64,000 nt of DNA, taken from Escherichia coli (lineage in GTDB: Bacteria > Pseudomonadota > Gammaproteobacteria > Enterobacterales > Enterobacteriaceae). Below the pieces are notes generated by a model. That model searched no databases and was not told where the DNA came from. It saw nothing but the letters and a program-made list of their open reading frames with translations. Location of the stretch: NCBI RefSeq assembly GCF_003790525.1, contig NZ_CP033635.1; one strand, written 5' to 3'. Position numbers and translations under genes: made by a program. Every line of letters begins with the position of its first letter. The stretch's first letter is position 1. Positions 1 through 31,212 of the stretch are shown one piece after another.

Positions 1-1
1 A

Positions 2-3000
2 ACAACCACCATCAAAAATGGCGGTGAGCAAAGAGTATATGAGAGCCGTGCGCTGGACACTACGATTGAAGGCGGAACTCAGTCTCTGAATAGTAATTCA
101 ACGGCAAAAAATACGCAGATCTATTCTGGTGGTACGCAAATTGTTGATTACACCAGCACCTCGGATGTTATTGAAATTTATTCCGGTGGCGTGCTTGATG
201 TTAGAGGTGGTATGGCAACAAATGTTACTCAGCACGATGGAGCCGCTTTAAAAGTAACGACTTACGATTTGACGGTGAGCGGTACGAATAGTGAAGGGGC
301 ATTCTCCATCCACAATAACGTGGCAGACAATGTGTTGCTGGAAAACGGTGGTCATTTAGACGTATATGGTTCGGCAACCAGGACGATAATTAAAGATAAA
401 GGAACAATGTCAGTTTTAACGAATGCTAAAGCTGATGCGACCCGAATAGATAATGGCGGGGTTATGGATGTCGCCGGAAACGCGACCAATACCATAATCA
501 ATGGTGGTACACAGAATATTAATAATCATGGTATTGCCACTGGCACCAATATCAACAGTGGAACGCAAAATATCAAGAGCGGCGGGAAAGCTGACACGAC
601 AAATATATCCTCCGGGAGCCGGCAGATTGTTGAGAAAGATGGTACGGCAACTGGCAGCAATATTAGCGCTGGAGGCTCGCTGATTGTCTATACCGGCGGT
701 ATTGCACATGGGGTTAACCAGGAGACGGGCAGTGCTTTAGTTGCCAACACGGGCGCAGGGACTGATATCGAAGGATACAACAAGCTCTCTCGCTTCACTA
801 TTATCGGAGGAGAGGCTAATTATGTTGTGCTGGAAAATACCGGCGAACTGACGGTAGTGGCTAAAACCTCGGCGAAAAATACTACCATTGATGCTGGCGG
901 TAAGCTGATTGTCCAGAAGGAGGCTAAAACAGATAGCACCAGACTTAATAATGGCGGCGTTCTGGAGGTTCAGGACGGTGGTGAGGCTAAGCATGTTGAG
1001 CAACAATCCGGCGGCGCATTAATTGCTTCCACGACCTCCGGAACACTTATCGAAGGAACCAACAGTTATGGTGATGCTTTCTACATCAGGAATTCAGAAG
1101 CTAAAAATGTAGTGCTGGAAAACGCTGGCTCATTAACAGTCGTCACTGGTTCCCGGGCAGTTGACACGATTATTAATGCCAACGGCAAAATGGATGTTTA
1201 TGGAAAAGATGTTGGTACTGTACTTAATAGTGCGGGTACCCAAACAATATATGCCAGTGCCACTTCTGAAAAAGCAAATATCAAAGGTGGCAAGCAAACG
1301 GTATATGGTTTAGCCACTGAGGCAAATATCGAAAGTGGTGAACAAATTGTTGATGGTGGGTCAACAGATAAAACGCACATCAAAGGCGGCACGCAAACCG
1401 TTCAGAATTATGGTAAGGCGATCAATACCGATATCGTCTCTGGCCTACAACAAATTATGGCAAACGGGACAGCGGAAGGTTCCATTATTAATGGCGGTTC
1501 ACAGGTAGTTAATGAGGGCGGTCTGGCTGAAAACTCGGTACTTAATGACGGCGGCACACTCGATGTGCGGGAGAAAGGCAGCGCTACGGGGATACAGCAG
1601 AGTAGCCAGGGCGCGTTGGTGGCAACCACCAGAGCGACGCGGGTCACAGGGACACGCGCTGATGGCGTCGCGTTCAGCATCGAGCAGGGTGCGGCGAACA
1701 ATATCCTGCTGACAAATGGCGGCGTGTTAACCGTGGAGTCAGACACCTCTTCCGCCAAAACACAGGTCAATGCGGGCGGGCGGGAGATCGTCAAAACAAA
1801 AGCCACTGCGACAGGCACGACGCTCACCGGCGGCGAACAAATCGTCGAGGGTGTGGCGAATGAGACAACGATTAACGACGGCGGAATACAAACAGTTTCG
1901 GCTAACGGTGAGGCAGTAAAAACAACGATTAATGAAGGCGGTACGCTGACAGTCAACGATAATGGCAAAGCGACAGATATCATCCAGAACAGCGGTGCCG
2001 CTCTCCAGACGAGCACGGCTAACGGTATTGAAATCAGCGGTACTCACCAGTACGGCACCTTTTCCATTGCCGGAAATTTAGCGACCAATGCGTTGCTGGA
2101 AAATGGCGGTAATTTATTGGTATTAGCAGGTACCGAAGCCCGTGACTCCACGGTTGGCAAGGGTGGTGCAATGCAAAACCTGGGTCAGGACTCCGCCACA
2201 AAGGTTAACTCTGGCGGGCAATATACCCTTGGGCGGTCAAAAGATGAGTTTCAGGCTCTGGCCCGGGCAGAAGATCTCCAGGTCGCTGGCGGGACGGCAA
2301 TCGTCTATGCAGGTACGCTGGCGGATGCATCGGTCAGTGGCGCGACAGGAAGCCTGTCGTTAATGACGCCACGGGATAATGTTACGCCAGTTAAACTCGA
2401 AGGGGCGATCCGGATTACCGATAGCGCGACATTAACTATCGGAAATGGCGTCGATACGACGCTTACCGACCTGACGGCTGCCAGCCGGGGCAGTGTCTGG
2501 CTTAACAGCAATAATTCCTGTGCAGGTACCAGCAACTGCGAATATAGAGTAAACAGTTTGCTCCTCAACGACGGTGATGTTTATTTATCAGCACAAACAG
2601 CAGCGCCTGCCACAACTAACGGTATCTACAATACGCTGACAACCAGTGAACTTTCCGGCAGCGGTAATTTCTACCTGCATACCAACGTTGCAGGCTCCCG
2701 GGGCGATCAACTGGTCGTCAACAACAACGCCACTGGTAATTTTAAAATCTTTGTTCAGGATACCGGCGTCAGCCCTCAGTCTGACGACGCGATGACGCTG
2801 GTGAAAACAGGGGGAGGGGATGCTTCGTTTACGCTGGGTAATACCGGCGGTTTCGTTGATCTTGGGACCTATGAGTATGTCCTGAAAAGCGACGGCAACA
2901 GCAACTGGAACCTGACCAATGATGTCAAACCCAACCCGGACCCCAACCCAAATCCGAAGCCGGATCCAAAACCAGACCCAAAACCGGATCCGAAACCAGA

Positions 3001-3955
3001 CCCGACTCCCGATCCAACGCCGACACCCGTCCCGGAGAAACGCATCACGCCTTCTACGGCAGCCGTACTCAATATGGCAGCAACATTACCGTTGGTCTTT
3101 GATGCTGAGCTAAACAGTATTCGCGAGCGGTTGAACATAATGAAAGCGAGTCCACACAACAATAATGTCTGGGGGACGACGTATAACACCCGTAATAATG
3201 TCACCACCGATGCGGGTGCCGGGTTTGAGCAGACGCTGACCGGAATGACGGTGGGGATCGATAGCCGTAATGATATTCCTGAGGGGATTGCGACGCTGGG
3301 CGCTTTTATGGGTTATTCCCATTCACATATCGGTTTTGATCGTGGAGGACATGGCAGTGTGGGCAGTTATTCTCTGGGGGGCTATGCCAGCTGGGAACAT
3401 GAAAGTGGTTTCTATCTGGACGGTATCGTGAAGCTGAACCGCTTTGAAAGTAACGTAGCCGGTAAAATGAGCAGCGGTGGAGCCGCCAACGGCAGTTATC
3501 GCAGCAACGGGCTGGGCGGTCACATTGAAACCGGGATGCGATTTACCGATGGTAACTGGAACCTGACGCCGTATGCATCGTTAACGGGGTTCACCGCTGA
3601 TAACCCCGAATATCATTTATCCAATGGCATGGAATCGAAATCAGTCGATACCCGCAGTATATATCGTGAACTGGGCGCAACGCTGAGTTACAACATGCGT
3701 CTGGGGAACGGCATGGAAGTTGAGCCGTGGCTGAAGGCGGCTGTGCGCAAAGAATTTGTCGATGATAACCGGGTGAAAGTGAATAATGACGGTAATTTTG
3801 TCAATGATTTGTCGGGCAGACGTGGAATATACCAGGCAGGTATTAAAGCCTCATTCAGCAGTTCGTTAAGCGGGAATCTCGGGGTGGGGTATAGCCATGG
3901 TGCCGGTGTGGAATCCCCGTGGAACGCAGTGGCTGGTGTGAACTGGTCGTTCTGA
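2..3955 (+). CDS. AIDA-I-type autotransporter adhesin, 5'-partial (reading frame open to the window edge)
   Basis: Frame is open from position 2 with no stop, so the gene starts upstream of the window. Repetitive Gly/Thr/Asn-rich beta-helix-like passenger, Pro-rich PNPDPK linker, C-terminal beta-barrel domain ending in ...NWSF. By position next to ssrA it may be the ypjA ortholog, but that is inferred from context only. Confidence 0.8.
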   Translation, partial: TTTIKNGGEQRVYESRALDTTIEGGTQSLNSNSTAKNTQIYSGGTQIVDYTSTSDVIEIYSGGVLDVRGGMATNVTQHDGAALKVTTYDLTVSGTNSEGAFSIHNNVADNVLLENGGHLDVYGSATRTIIKDKGTMSVLTNAKADATRIDNGGVMDVAGNATNTIINGGTQNINNHGIATGTNINSGTQNIKSGGKADTTNISSGSRQIVEKDGTATGSNISAGGSLIVYTGGIAHGVNQETGSALVANTGAGTDIEGYNKLSRFTIIGGEANYVVLENTGELTVVAKTSAKNTTIDAGGKLIVQKEAKTDSTRLNNGGVLEVQDGGEAKHVEQQSGGALIASTTSGTLIEGTNSYGDAFYIRNSEAKNVVLENAGSLTVVTGSRAVDTIINANGKMDVYGKDVGTVLNSAGTQTIYASATSEKANIKGGKQTVYGLATEANIESGEQIVDGGSTDKTHIKGGTQTVQNYGKAINTDIVSGLQQIMANGTAEGSIINGGSQVVNEGGLAENSVLNDGGTLDVREKGSATGIQQSSQGALVATTRATRVTGTRADGVAFSIEQGAANNILLTNGGVLTVESDTSSAKTQVNAGGREIVKTKATATGTTLTGGEQIVEGVANETTINDGGIQTVSANGEAVKTTINEGGTLTVNDNGKATDIIQNSGAALQTSTANGIEISGTHQYGTFSIAGNLATNALLENGGNLLVLAGTEARDSTVGKGGAMQNLGQDSATKVNSGGQYTLGRSKDEFQALARAEDLQVAGGTAIVYAGTLADASVSGATGSLSLMTPRDNVTPVKLEGAIRITDSATLTIGNGVDTTLTDLTAASRGSVWLNSNNSCAGTSNCEYRVNSLLLNDGDVYLSAQTAAPATTNGIYNTLTTSELSGSGNFYLHTNVAGSRGDQLVVNNNATGNFKIFVQDTGVSPQSDDAMTLVKTGGGDASFTLGNTGGFVDLGTYEYVLKSDGNSNWNLTNDVKPNPDPNPNPKPDPKPDPKPDPKPDPTPDPTPTPVPEKRITPSTAAVLNMAATLPLVFDAELNSIRERLNIMKASPHNNNVWGTTYNTRNNVTTDAGAGFEQTLTGMTVGIDSRNDIPEGIATLGAFMGYSHSHIGFDRGGHGSVGSYSLGGYASWEHESGFYLDGIVKLNRFESNVAGKMSSGGAANGSYRSNGLGGHIETGMRFTDGNWNLTPYASLTGFTADNPEYHLSNGMESKSVDTRSIYRELGATLSYNMRLGNGMEVEPWLKAAVRKEFVDDNRVKVNNDGNFVNDLSGRRGIYQAGIKASFSSSLSGNLGVGYSHGAGVESPWNAVAGVNWSF

Positions 3956-4115
3956 CCATCAACGAAAAAGCCCACATCTGTGGGCTTTCATATCACCAGG
4001 AGCCGCGGCTCCTTTGCGTATCCTTTTTTGTCTCCTCACCGTCTGGTCGGTGTCCTGCTGAGACTGCTAACTTCCTGTTTTTATTGGTGTTGTCCTTACA
4101 CCGTCCAATCATGAT

Positions 4116-4478
4116 TGGTGGAGCTGGCGGGAGTTGAACCCGCGTCCGAAATTCCTACATCCTCGGTACTACATGCTTAGTCAGTCTTTACATTCGCTTG
4201 CCAGCTGCGGACGGACACGCCACTAACAAACTAGCCTGATTAAGTTTTAACGCTTCAACCCCAGGCAGGGCTTCCACGCGATCTCTTTTGGGTTTGACCT
4301 CTCTTGATCCCCGTCCTAAGAGCGGAGGCTAGGGAGAGAGGGCTCTAAGCAGGTTATTAAGCTGCTAAAGCGTAGTTTTCGTCGTTTGCGACTATTTTTT
4401 GCGGCTTTTTACGAGGCCAACCGCCCCTCGGCATGCACCTTGGGTTTCGCAAATCCCGTCGAATCCAGAATCAGCCCC
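4116..4478 (-). ncRNA. ssrA: tmRNA (SsrA), 363 nt
   Basis: Reverse complement reads GGGGCTGATTCTGGATTCGACGGG ... CCAGCTCCACCA and contains the tag reading frame encoding ANDENYALAA; sits downstream of smpB as expected. Confidence 0.95.
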
Positions 4479-4692
4479 AATGTGTGACGGTAAGTATACC
4501 AGATTCATGAGTGCCATGACCAGCCTCAATGGCGTTATCATTAAAGATTTAGCACCCATGTAGCCTGATTTTTATTCGATTAAGCAATGGGATGGCAACA
4601 TTTGTGTCGGAAGTGATAGCCAATAAGATGTTCATTCGCGCCGCCGGAGAGGGAGGCGCGGTGAGGAACTGGTCAATAATTGCAGTGCAGGT

Positions 4693-9329: not shown

Positions 9330-9953
<624 letters not shown>

Positions 9954-9960
9954 ATATCTG

Positions 9961-9990
9961 ATGGCCGACGCGAAGTCGGCCATTTTTTTA
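9961..9990. terminator. intrinsic terminator shared by grpE and the convergent acidic ORF
   Basis: ATGGCCGACGCGAAGTCGGCCAT hairpin followed by TTTTTTT on the plus strand; the stop codon of the minus-strand ORF lies in the T-run. Confidence 0.75.
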
Positions 9991-10629
9991 GCTTAAAAAA
10001 TCCTGTACTTCCAGCCACGGCGTGTTGAAATCATCTATTTTTTTATATTCGTTCATTGGCAGAACGACCACGTTATAGGTGTCAGATCCTTCATTCAGAT
10101 CAAAAATCTGAAAGCCCCTTTTATTGAGTTCGGTTTGGATGCGTTCAAAGATTTCGTCAAGGTAACGGTCTCCGGCTTCACAGACATCGGAGATTTCATC
10201 CTCTTGGGTTATTTCGACAAGAAGACTCCTTAATTCCTCAGAAGCTGTCAGGTTTTTTGTGAGCTCATAAAAGCGATCTGCAGCAAAATTAGCCAGCTCA
10301 CCTTCTTCATCTTCACCTTTCCAGTCAACGAGTTGAATTAGTCCTTCACCGCGCAGAACCTGTAAAAATGCCTGCGCCAGGTCATGATTTCCGAGATCGC
10401 CTCCACTGCAATCGAGAACGTCTTGTAATCCATATTCGTCTTCATCTTCGTCTTCAAAGATTTCAGGTTGCGTCGAAAGTTGAGAGAAAATAGTGGGCCA
10501 TAAGGTTGGGGTGTGCTGTAAAAAAACGCTGGCGACGACGTTGAGATCGTCTGCAAAATCCTTATCCCATTCAATTAAATAATCTTCTGACATAACATCA
10601 ATATCCTTTCCGAATGTTTGAAAAGACAT
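9988..10629 (-). CDS. hypothetical highly acidic cytoplasmic protein (213 aa), unrecognised, probably accessory
   Basis: Intact ORF; 51 Asp+Glu versus about 13 Lys+Arg; EDEDEDE run; no signal peptide or TM segment; no motif I recognise. Not part of the K-12 grpE-yfjD arrangement as I recall it. Start may be 10629 (no Shine-Dalgarno) or the Met at 10593 (AAGGA about 10 nt upstream). Confidence 0.6.
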   Translation of the reverse strand: MSFQTFGKDIDVMSEDYLIEWDKDFADDLNVVASVFLQHTPTLWPTIFSQLSTQPEIFEDEDEDEYGLQDVLDCSGGDLGNHDLAQAFLQVLRGEGLIQLVDWKGEDEEGELANFAADRFYELTKNLTASEELRSLLVEITQEDEISDVCEAGDRYLDEIFERIQTELNKRGFQIFDLNEGSDTYNVVVLPMNEYKKIDDFNTPWLEVQDFLS

Positions 10630-10682
10630 TATTACATTGCTAAGTAAATGACAGGAATTGATGGAATCCTAAAAGACGGCGA

Positions 10683-10709
10683 TAAAAAAAAAGGCGAACC
10701 GGAGTTCGC
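10683..10709 (-). terminator. intrinsic terminator downstream of yfjD
   Basis: Minus strand reads GGCGAACTCCGGTTCGCC hairpin followed by a T-run (A9 on the plus strand). Confidence 0.7.
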
Positions 10710-10716
10710 CATTGCG

Positions 10717-12981: not shown

Positions 12982-14343
12982 ATGTTTGATAATTTAACCG
13001 ATCGTTTGTCGCGCACGCTGCGCAATATCAGTGGCCGTGGACGCCTCACTGAAGACAACGTAAAAGATACGCTGCGCGAAGTGCGCATGGCGCTGCTGGA
13101 GGCGGACGTCGCTCTGCCGGTAGTGCGTGAGTTTATCAATCGCGTAAAAGAGAAAGCGGTTGGTCATGAAGTTAATAAGAGCCTGACGCCGGGGCAGGAG
13201 TTCGTCAAAATCGTCCGTAACGAACTGGTTGCGGCGATGGGCGAAGAGAACCAGACCCTGAATCTGGCTGCGCAACCGCCAGCGGTGGTACTGATGGCGG
13301 GCCTGCAAGGTGCCGGTAAAACAACCAGCGTGGGCAAGCTCGGTAAGTTCCTGCGCGAGAAGCACAAGAAAAAAGTGTTGGTGGTTTCTGCCGACGTTTA
13401 TCGTCCGGCGGCAATCAAACAGCTGGAGACGCTGGCAGAGCAGGTGGGCGTTGATTTCTTCCCTTCTGATGTTGGTCAGAAGCCGGTAGATATCGTTAAC
13501 GCGGCGCTGAAAGAAGCCAAACTGAAATTCTACGACGTGCTGCTGGTGGATACCGCCGGTCGTCTGCACGTTGACGAAGCGATGATGGACGAGATCAAAC
13601 AAGTCCATGCGTCGATTAATCCGGTTGAAACCCTGTTTGTGGTTGACGCCATGACCGGTCAGGATGCGGCCAATACGGCAAAAGCATTTAATGAAGCGTT
13701 ATCGCTTACCGGCGTAGTGTTGACCAAAGTGGACGGCGATGCCCGCGGCGGTGCGGCGCTGTCTATTCGTCACATCACTGGCAAACCGATCAAGTTCCTC
13801 GGTGTTGGCGAGAAAACTGAGGCGCTGGAGCCGTTCCATCCGGACCGCATCGCGTCGCGCATTCTCGGCATGGGCGACGTACTGTCACTGATCGAAGATA
13901 TTGAAAGCAAAGTTGACCGCGCGCAGGCAGAGAAATTAGCCAGCAAGCTGAAAAAAGGCGACGGCTTCGATCTCAACGATTTTCTTGAGCAACTGCGCCA
14001 GATGAAAAATATGGGCGGCATGGCCAGCCTGATGGGCAAACTGCCGGGCATGGGGCAGATCCCGGATAACGTCAAGTCGCAGATGGACGATAAAGTGCTG
14101 GTGCGTATGGAAGCCATCATCAACTCGATGACGATGAAAGAGCGCGCTAAGCCAGAAATCATCAAAGGTTCGCGTAAACGCCGTATCGCTGCCGGTTGCG
14201 GTATGCAGGTGCAGGACGTTAACCGTCTTCTGAAACAGTTCGACGACATGCAGCGCATGATGAAGAAAATGAAGAAGGGCGGAATGGCAAAGATGATGAG
14301 AAGCATGAAAGGGATGATGCCGCCGGGATTTCCTGGTCGCTAA
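12982..14343 (+). CDS. ffh: signal recognition particle protein Ffh
   Basis: 453-aa ORF with GTPase motifs (GLQGAGKTT, DTAGR) and Met-rich M domain. Confidence 0.97.
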   Translation: MFDNLTDRLSRTLRNISGRGRLTEDNVKDTLREVRMALLEADVALPVVREFINRVKEKAVGHEVNKSLTPGQEFVKIVRNELVAAMGEENQTLNLAAQPPAVVLMAGLQGAGKTTSVGKLGKFLREKHKKKVLVVSADVYRPAAIKQLETLAEQVGVDFFPSDVGQKPVDIVNAALKEAKLKFYDVLLVDTAGRLHVDEAMMDEIKQVHASINPVETLFVVDAMTGQDAANTAKAFNEALSLTGVVLTKVDGDARGGAALSIRHITGKPIKFLGVGEKTEALEPFHPDRIASRILGMGDVLSLIEDIESKVDRAQAEKLASKLKKGDGFDLNDFLEQLRQMKNMGGMASLMGKLPGMGQIPDNVKSQMDDKVLVRMEAIINSMTMKERAKPEIIKGSRKRRIAAGCGMQVQDVNRLLKQFDDMQRMMKKMKKGGMAKMMRSMKGMMPPGFPGR

Positions 14344-14401
14344 ATGACCTTATGCGACAGAGTTATTAACTGCTGATTGCATTTTCTCCAGAAATCAGTA
14401 A

Positions 14402-21760: not shown

Positions 21761-22921
21761 TCAGGTTGGATCAACAGGCACTACGTTCTCACTTGGGTAA
21801 CAGCCCAATACCTTCATCGAACGGGTGATTTCCCCTAACTCTTTCAATGCTTTTTGCATTTCCGCTGATTCAAGATTGGCCTGAATATCCAGATAAAACA
21901 TCTCTTCCCACGGATTACCGTGAATCGGACGTGATTCCAGACGGGTCATAATTAGACTGTGGTTGCGCAGTACCAGCAACGCTTCAACCAGTGCACCAGC
22001 TTGTTGTCCGGTCGCCATTAACAACGTCGTTTTCGCCGGAACCTGGTCAGAAACGTTAATGGCTTTACGTGCCAACACCACAAATCGGGTGAAGTTTTGT
22101 CGCTGATTCGCTTCAATACGCTCCAGTACCTGCAAACCGTACAAAGTGCCGCCAGCTTCGCTTCCCAACGCAGCAACATGCGGTGATTTTGCCTGTGCAA
22201 CCTTTTCCATTGCCGCAGACGTACTTTCGGTATATTCAATCTTCCAGTGCGGATAACGATTAAGGAATTTGCTGCATTGCTGGAATGGCTGCGGATGGCT
22301 GTAGACCGTATTAATGGTGGATAAATCAGTAGTGCCGGAGACCAACAAACAATGATCGATAGTTAACGTCATCTCGCCAACAATCGACAAACTGGTATGT
22401 TGCAGCAGATCGTAAACGTCGTTTATGGCACCGGAGCTGGTATTTTCAATCGGTACGACGGCATAGTCGGCCTGGCCGGTTTCCACCTGATTAAAAATAT
22501 CGGCAAATTTGGCGCAGCCACTTTCAATGAATTGCTCAAAGTGACGCGCAGCGTACTGACGAGCGGCAAGATGTGAATAGGAGCCTTTGGGGCCGAGAAA
22601 AGCGATGCGTGCTGAGTGCGGATTAATTTTATTGAGATGTTGCTGGAGCAAAGCCTGCTGAGTTAATACGGAATCTTCAATGATGAGCTGGAACAGGCGA
22701 GTAATGTAATGGGCGTCCAGATGGTGCGCTTTACCGAGCGTAATTAATCTTTCCAGCAAATCGCGTTCACGATCAATATCACGTACCGGGCGATGCGAGA
22801 GTAGTTTGGCTTTTCCCACCTCGACGGCCAGTTCGCGTCGCTCTGCCAGTAATGCTAATAATTTTTCATCCAGCGCGCTGATTTTCTCTCGCAGCGCCAG
22901 TAACGGGTTTTCCGATGTCAT
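21761..22921 (-). CDS. pheA: bifunctional chorismate mutase / prephenate dehydratase PheA
   Basis: 386-aa [35 protein letters not shown]... Confidence 0.95.
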
Positions 22922-22943
22922 AGTGTTGCCTTTTTGTTATCAA

Positions 22944-22972
22944 TAAAAAAGGCCCCCCGATTTGGGAGGCCT
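22944..22972 (-). terminator. pheA attenuator terminator
   Basis: Minus strand reads AGGCCTCCCAAATCGGGGGGCCT followed by a T-run, between pheL and pheA. Confidence 0.75.
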
Positions 22973-23019
22973 TATTGTTCGTCTTCGCATTCTGTTTCAC
23001 ACGACGAAACGCCTCCCAT

Positions 23020-23067
23020 TCAGGGGAAGGTAAAAAAGAATGCGAAGAAAAACGGTGTGTGTTTCAT
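23020..23067 (-). CDS. pheL: pheA leader peptide PheL (15 aa, Phe-rich)
   Basis: Minus strand ATG AAA CAC ACA CCG TTT TTC TTC GCA TTC TTT TTT ACC TTC CCC TGA = [15 protein letters not shown]. Confidence 0.9.
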   Translation of the reverse strand: [15 protein letters not shown]

Positions 23068-23120
23068 GTTTGTTTCCTTAAGTGACTTTAGTACAGTACC
23101 CGTACTGTTTTCACGCTGTC

Positions 23121-23147
23121 AACAAAAAACGCGCCCGAAGGCGCGTT
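23121..23147 (-). terminator. intrinsic terminator after raiA
   Basis: AACGCGCCCGAAGGCGCGTT hairpin with an A-run on the plus strand (T-run on minus). Confidence 0.7.
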
Positions 23148-23170
23148 GGCGATACACTCAATATAAAGGA

Positions 23171-23566
<396 letters not shown>

Positions 23567-29509: not shown

Positions 29510-31051
<1,542 letters not shown>

Positions 31052-31136
31052 CCTTAAAGAAGCGTACTTTGAAGTGCTCACACAGATTGTCTGATAGAAA
31101 GTGAAAAGCAAGGCGTCTTGCGAAGCAGACTGATAC

Positions 31137-31212
31137 GTCCCCTTCGTCTAGAGGCCCAGGACACCGCCCTTTCACGGCGGTAACAGGGGTTCGAATCCCC
31201 TAGGGGACGCCA
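31137..31212 (+). tRNA. gltW: tRNA-Glu (spacer tRNA)
   Basis: GTCCCCTTCGTCTAGAGGCCCAGGACACCGCCCTTTCACGGCGGTAACAGGGGTTCGAATCCCCTAGGGGACGCCA. Confidence 0.95.

Follow-up and report, generated by a model that had tools for sequence, protein, structure and literature searches.

The pheL-pheA attenuator of an Escherichia coli strain bears a common, apparently ancestral Thr4 leader peptide that differs, most likely neutrally, from that of K-12

Organization of the pheL-pheA locus

The leader-peptide gene pheL was analysed in a 64,000-nucleotide stretch of E. coli DNA, hereafter called the window. According to the annotation of GN03139, the closest annotated genome, which is identical to window positions 4116-64000 save for three SNPs, pheL directly precedes pheA and follows raiA, all three genes being on the minus strand. 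The genes and signals at the locus, with the basis for each, are the following:

21761..22921, minus strand: pheA (chorismate mutase/prephenate dehydratase), the regulated gene; collinear GN03139 annotation
23020..23067, minus strand: pheL leader-peptide ORF, 15 codons plus TGA; translation, and collinear GN03139 annotation at the same coordinates (WP_001386991.1)
23057, minus strand: polymorphic base, C in the window (ACA, Thr) versus T in K-12 (ATA, Ile); three-way alignment and SNP list against K-12
23075..23079, minus strand: putative Shine-Dalgarno element AAGGA, 7 nt 5′ of the pheL ATG; sequence reading, same in K-12
23117..23122, minus strand: TTGACA hexamer, candidate −35 element of a pheL-pheA promoter; sequence reading, same in K-12
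23128..23147, minus strand: raiA terminator, bounding the pheL-pheA transcription unit; terminator scan
23171-23512, minus strand: raiA, the upstream gene; collinear GN03139 annotation

Read on the minus strand, the pheL codons are ATG AAA CAC ACA CCG TTT TTC TTC GCA TTC TTT TTT ACC TTC CCC TGA, and translation gives seven Phe codons at positions 6-8, 10-12 and 14, with ACA (Thr) at codon 4 (23058-23056). Translation of the plus strand of 23020-23067 yielded no meaningful peptide, and a consensus promoter scan of 22850-23250 found no sigma-70 match and called no full promoter. The ORF terminates in UUC_CCC_UGA, the feature that defines group A of Gurvich et al. 2011.

The leader RNA and its alternative folds

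The leader RNA comprises the following elements:

22943..23068, minus strand: complete Phe leader RNA (attenuator); Rfam RF01859, model positions 1-125 of 125
22977..23053, minus strand: region 1:2 (pause/anti-antiterminator) helix over the Phe codons; Rfam consensus and minimum free energy (MFE) fold, RNA positions 16-92
22963..23018, minus strand: predicted antiterminator 2:3, pairing UGGGAGGC (23018-23011) with GCCUCCCA (22970-22963); fold prediction
22945..22973, minus strand: intrinsic terminator 3:4, a 10-pair G+C-rich stem (22973..22949) followed by a T run to 22945; terminator scan, MFE fold and Rfam

The Rfam Phe_leader model (RF01859) matched the locus over its full length with a score of 132.2 bits, well above the gathering score of 55 (E = 9.4e-25), and pheL is thus a genuine leader rather than a chance ORF. 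Every testable defining feature of RF01859 was found here, making the locus a textbook pheL-pheA attenuator of the ribosome-mediated type. The general layout is that of the trpL, hisL, thrL, leuL and ilvL attenuators, where the biosynthetic genes are preceded by a small reading frame full of cognate codons, by hairpins that form in alternation and by an intrinsic terminator; these systems differ from pheL in their regulatory codons and operons and bear no sequence relationship to it.

The leader RNA folds with a predicted MFE of −51.7 kcal/mol (z = −6.8 versus shuffles), and the full-length MFE structure is predicted to hold the 1:2 and 3:4 helices, the 2:3 pairing being a mutually exclusive alternative predicted when region 1 is masked. 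To mimic a ribosome stalled on the Phe codons with the 3′ terminator arm still pending, region 1 and that arm were omitted from the fold, and the UGGGAGGC/GCCUCCCA antiterminator was then predicted at −23.3 kcal/mol (z = −4.6). With the 3′ terminator arm included, the predicted fold was the terminator.

The polymorphic base at 23057 corresponds to RNA and model position 12, which is unpaired and lies 5′ of the 1:2 helix, whose pairing begins at position 16. The ACA and ATA alleles gave an identical MFE structure of −51.7 kcal/mol each, and the ensemble energies of the two were −53.42 and −53.50 kcal/mol. An effect of the codon-4 SNP on RNA structure was considered and rejected, since the base is unpaired and both folds are identical.

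Comparison with the K-12 leader

An MG1655 derivative (NZ_CP014348) served as the K-12 reference, and its translation gives ATA (Ile) at pheL codon 4. The sequence-only reading of the locus had described a one-residue difference from K-12 at this codon, ACA versus ATA, with Ile as the K-12 residue; alignment and translation agree with both statements, and the alignment showed that K-12 does not share the Thr. Within 22880-23200 the window and K-12 are the same at 320/321 bases, the sole mismatch being the second position of codon 4, and 23057 is the only K-12 mismatch between 22853 and 23582 (730 bases).

The K-12 attenuator (RF01859; WP_010723158.1, "phe operon leader peptide") therefore differs in pheL by a single base, ATA (Ile) versus ACA (Thr) at codon 4, and shares with that of the window the raiA-pheA locus, the length, the Shine-Dalgarno sequence, the seven Phe codons, Pro5, the UUC_CCC_UGA end, the 1:2, 2:3 and 3:4 pairings including the antiterminator, the terminator and the predicted fold. 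The earlier statements that the seven Phe codons and the attenuator hairpin are intact are borne out, the hairpin having been placed at 22944..22972, within one base of the stem and T run found here. The enterobacterial pheL group with the UUC_CCC_UGA end, as described by Gurvich et al. 2011 (PMC3082878), shares with the window the Phe-rich core, the terminal Pro followed by UGA, and the Pro at position −10; the K-12 pheL used in that study differs from the window pheL only in the freely varying N-terminal codon 4.

The window peptide is identical to WP_001386991.1 ("pheA operon leader peptide PheL"), found in O157:H7, BL21, S88, E2865 and GN03139, and the 321-base pheL region is present as identical DNA in many genomes with this accession. 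The window pheL is an already known allele, catalogued in RefSeq. Neither peptide string turned up in any paper in a full-text literature search.

Beyond pheL, the window and K-12 differ at 735 sites over about 38 kb of aligned sequence, or about 19 per kb, and ypjA abuts ssrA in the window, where K-12 bears the intA prophage. Together with the ACA codon, these differences place the strain outside the K-12 lineage, as the sequence-only reading had held.

Distribution and polarity of the codon-4 alleles

Allele counts are exact matches of a 57-mer with the SNP in its middle; 5,426 complete E. coli genomes were searched, and 5,418 of them have the site. The ACA (Thr) form was present in 3,988/5,418 and the ATA (Ile) form in 1,383/5,418, while about 47 genomes had another change. 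The Thr4 carriers include BL21, O157:H7, S88, SMS-3-5-like strains and many commensal or livestock isolates; Ile4 was found in K-12 derivatives, ETEC H10407 and NCTC9100. The Ile frequency of 25% probably overstates that in nature, because laboratory derivatives of K-12 are over-represented among the complete genomes.

These counts bear on the possibility that the C in the window is a sequencing or assembly error in a strain that truly has the K-12 allele, as a difference of only one base might suggest. The exact 57-mer occurs in 3,988 independent complete genomes, several independent assemblies are identical to the window across the pheL region, and RefSeq lists the Thr peptide under a separate accession (WP_001386991.1); with thousands of independent assemblies showing the same allele, an error is effectively refuted, and its residual probability is negligible.

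To orient the change, pheL leaders were collected in a one-genome-per-species scan with the back-translated Phe-rich core, which gave at least 120 Enterobacterales loci. E. albertii, the only Escherichia outgroup among the matches listed, has ACT (Thr) at codon 4 (MKHTP...); this single outgroup from the genus anchors the polarity, as the matches listed include none from E. fergusonii, E. marmotae or E. ruysiae. Neighbour-joining trees were then built from both 3-kb flanks of pheL for eight Ile carriers plus K-12 and eight Thr carriers, with E. albertii as the root. In both flank trees, all of the sampled Ile carriers (9/9, H10407 included) formed one tight K-12-like cluster nested among the Thr carriers, and BL21, O157:H7, S88, the B1-like strains and the window fell outside it.

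It could be argued that Ile4 has several independent origins or was passed between unrelated lineages by recombination, such that the site tracks no clade. Consistent with this, H10407 has Ile4 yet carries PheA and TyrA protein variants unlike those of other Ile carriers, and BL21, whose pheL locus is closely related to that of the K-12 group, retains Thr. The grouping of all nine sampled Ile carriers with K-12 in both trees, H10407 among them, argues against such a scenario, which we regard as unlikely. The simplest reading of these sequence comparisons is that Thr4 is the ancestral and majority state and Ile4 a derived allele of the K-12 lineage, which would have arisen by a single C-to-T transition in the ancestor of the K-12-like haplotype group; the single origin is drawn from 9 of the approximately 1,383 Ile carriers. 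The sequence-only reading was correct that a substitution separates the two leaders, but it had ascribed the substitution to the window. Since Thr is in the majority and is present in E. albertii, and the Ile carriers are nested in one cluster, it is K-12 that appears to carry it.

Constraint on codon 4 and its possible effect on attenuation

In the species scan, codons 1-5 and the downstream bases lay outside the search pattern, so the extent to which they vary was not dictated by the search. The constancy of the Phe core across species was set aside as evidence, as the core was itself the search pattern and the argument would be circular. Among the 120 Enterobacterales species listed, codon 4 encodes 14 different residues with an entropy of 3.19 bits, the highest of codons 1-5, and its nucleotide entropies are 1.7-2.0 bits; ATA at codon 4 was found in 0 of the 120 other species listed. 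In Gurvich et al. 2011 (PMC3082878), pheL codons are described as mostly variable in identity and the regulatory Phe codons as conserved. The same study reports about 15% incidental +1 frameshifting at the UUC_CCC_UGA site of E. coli pheL, stimulated by nascent-peptide residues at codons −1 (Phe14), −2 (Thr13) and −10 (Pro5), with Pro5 contributing about 2-fold at CCC_UGA. It also refers to Salmonella tRNA-Pro mutants suggesting that pheL frameshifting occurs without influence on pheA expression, and no effect is singled out there for codon 4, which corresponds to position −11 (PMC3082878). Pro5, Thr13, Phe14 and CCC_UGA are all retained in the window.

AUA is a very rare and specially decoded codon in E. 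coli, and ACA is moderately rare. The SNP, at ORF position +11, falls in the stretch that a ribosome covers during initiation, and residue 4 adjoins Pro5. The Thr/Ile difference might therefore be functional, with AUA or the Pro5-adjacent residue altering the speed of leader translation, the coupling of RNA polymerase to the ribosome or +1 frameshifting, and in that case basal or induced pheA expression would shift between lineages. Besides the position of the SNP and the decoding of AUA, the absence of ATA from codon 4 in all 120 other species listed and the about 2-fold effect of the neighbouring Pro5 on frameshifting (PMC3082878) speak in its favour. On the other hand, the range of 14 residues at codon 4 gives no sign of constraint, the predicted structures and energies are the same for both alleles, and both alleles persist in many healthy lineages. 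The mutagenesis described in PMC3082878 reports only codons −1, −2 and −10 as mattering, and the Salmonella frameshifting there had no effect on pheA. A small effect of AUA versus ACA on the kinetics of leader translation in the K-12 lineage is conceivable, but we hold it to be very improbable. We assign an equally low probability to the stronger proposal that the ACA-to-AUA change measurably altered these kinetics or the nascent-peptide-stimulated frameshifting in K-12. If it were true, the strain that has served as reference in essentially all work on pheA attenuation would have a set-point unlike that of most natural E. coli, the present strain among them.

The preferred reading is instead that attenuation in the window is unchanged relative to K-12. 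This prediction is well supported by the sequence and the modelled structure, because the Phe codons, Pro5, UUC_CCC_UGA, the antiterminator and the terminator are the same in both, and the earlier expectation that attenuation should be unaffected is in this sense well founded. From the identity of 320/321 bases to the experimentally studied K-12 leader, Phe-dependent control of read-through into pheA is likewise to be expected in the window.

Interpretation and marker value

Taken together, the data argue for an ordinary E. coli pheL-pheA attenuator with a common, ancestral Thr4 leader, whose difference from K-12 is most likely neutral; we put the probability of this reading at about 0.93. When charged tRNA-Phe is plentiful, the ribosome would clear the seven Phe codons, allowing the 3:4 terminator to form, such that transcription would stop before pheA. 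When Phe is scarce, the ribosome would stall on the Phe codons and mask region 1, the 2:3 antiterminator would form, and pheA would be transcribed. The codon-4 transition lies 5′ of all the paired regions and in the least constrained codon of the leader, and is most likely a neutral C-to-T polymorphism that arose on the branch that led to K-12 and the strains closest to it.

The biological weight of this difference is very small, and its main lesson is that K-12 is a reference, not a typical E. coli, at pheL codon 4. With Thr4 as the ancestral and majority state, a mismatch to K-12 at this codon should not be taken for a mutation in the studied strain. The site can serve to rule out the K-12-like haplotype group, for example as a check for laboratory-strain contamination, and offers no finer resolution. 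The proposal that codon 4 is a useful strain marker showing that the strain is not K-12 therefore holds as far as the exclusion of K-12 is concerned, whereas "useful" is generous for an allele common to about 3/4 of complete genomes.

Leader variants in other genomes

Several departures from the usual leader were noted among the loci retrieved. In E. coli MSI001 (locus L141, 1862-3066), a prophage annotated with a "phage integrase" and small phage-type genes, which we take to be P2-like, lies between raiA and pheL, immediately 5′ of the leader, and the leader itself, MKHTPFSFAFFFIFP, has 6 Phe codons versus 7. The alignments of EC556 and 1604D011 also break at query 53-60, corresponding to the raiA terminator at about 23141-23148 of the window; together with the MSI001 prophage, these breaks suggest a recurrent phage attachment site at the raiA terminator. 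In E. coli PCN061 (locus L131, 3019-3066) the pheL stop codon TGA is replaced by AGA, and RefSeq treats the gene as an incomplete pseudogene; the change may represent true read-through or stem from an error in sequencing.

In Trabulsiella odontotermitis (L094), the terminal Pro codon of the leader is not followed by a stop, which gives a 23-residue reading, a natural extension past the CCC_UGA termination region of other species. The metagenome-assembled "Enterobacter sp." UW_MP_ENTER5_1 (L014, L015) has two different pheL leaders on two contigs, MVRKP... as in Serratia grimesii and MKQTP... as in Enterobacter cloacae, which suggests a mixed bin. GTG occupies the position of the ATG start (GTGAAA...) in leaders of Kluyvera, Pseudocitrobacter, Enterobacter sp. 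JUb54, Klebsiella oxytoca and Raoultella (L027, L038, L047, L064, L069, L093, L095 and L096); the peptide parsing accepted ATG only and returned no peptide for these loci.

The surrounding window

The whole window is an approximately 100% match to SMS-3-5-like genomes, and positions 1-4600 are 100% identical to SMS-3-5 and several other genomes. In window 1-4478, the ypjA/ehaD autotransporter adhesin ORF (191-3955, plus strand), with Pfam AIDA repeats, Pertactin and Autotransporter beta-domain matches, adjoins ssrA (tmRNA, about 4116-4478, minus strand), and the ssrA attachment site is free of prophage. In K-12, intA is found at this site, in a prophage that we take to be CP4-57, and GN03139 has genes for an integrase, a "phage polarity suppression protein" and an "ogr/Delta-like zinc finger family protein" there.

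The stretch 9949-10712 has no K-12 counterpart and, according to the collinear genome, contains a gene for a DUF6630 family protein (9988-10593, minus strand) between grpE and yfjD. Two further alignment breaks reflect additional DNA in K-12, namely about 112 bases at 14343-14358 in the ffh-rpsP intergenic region, and about 86 bases at 31116-31137 in the 16S to tRNA-Glu spacer of an rRNA operon. Over 59,885 bases, only positions 30404, 53404 and 57002 set the window apart from GN03139, a bloodstream isolate from Durham, USA.
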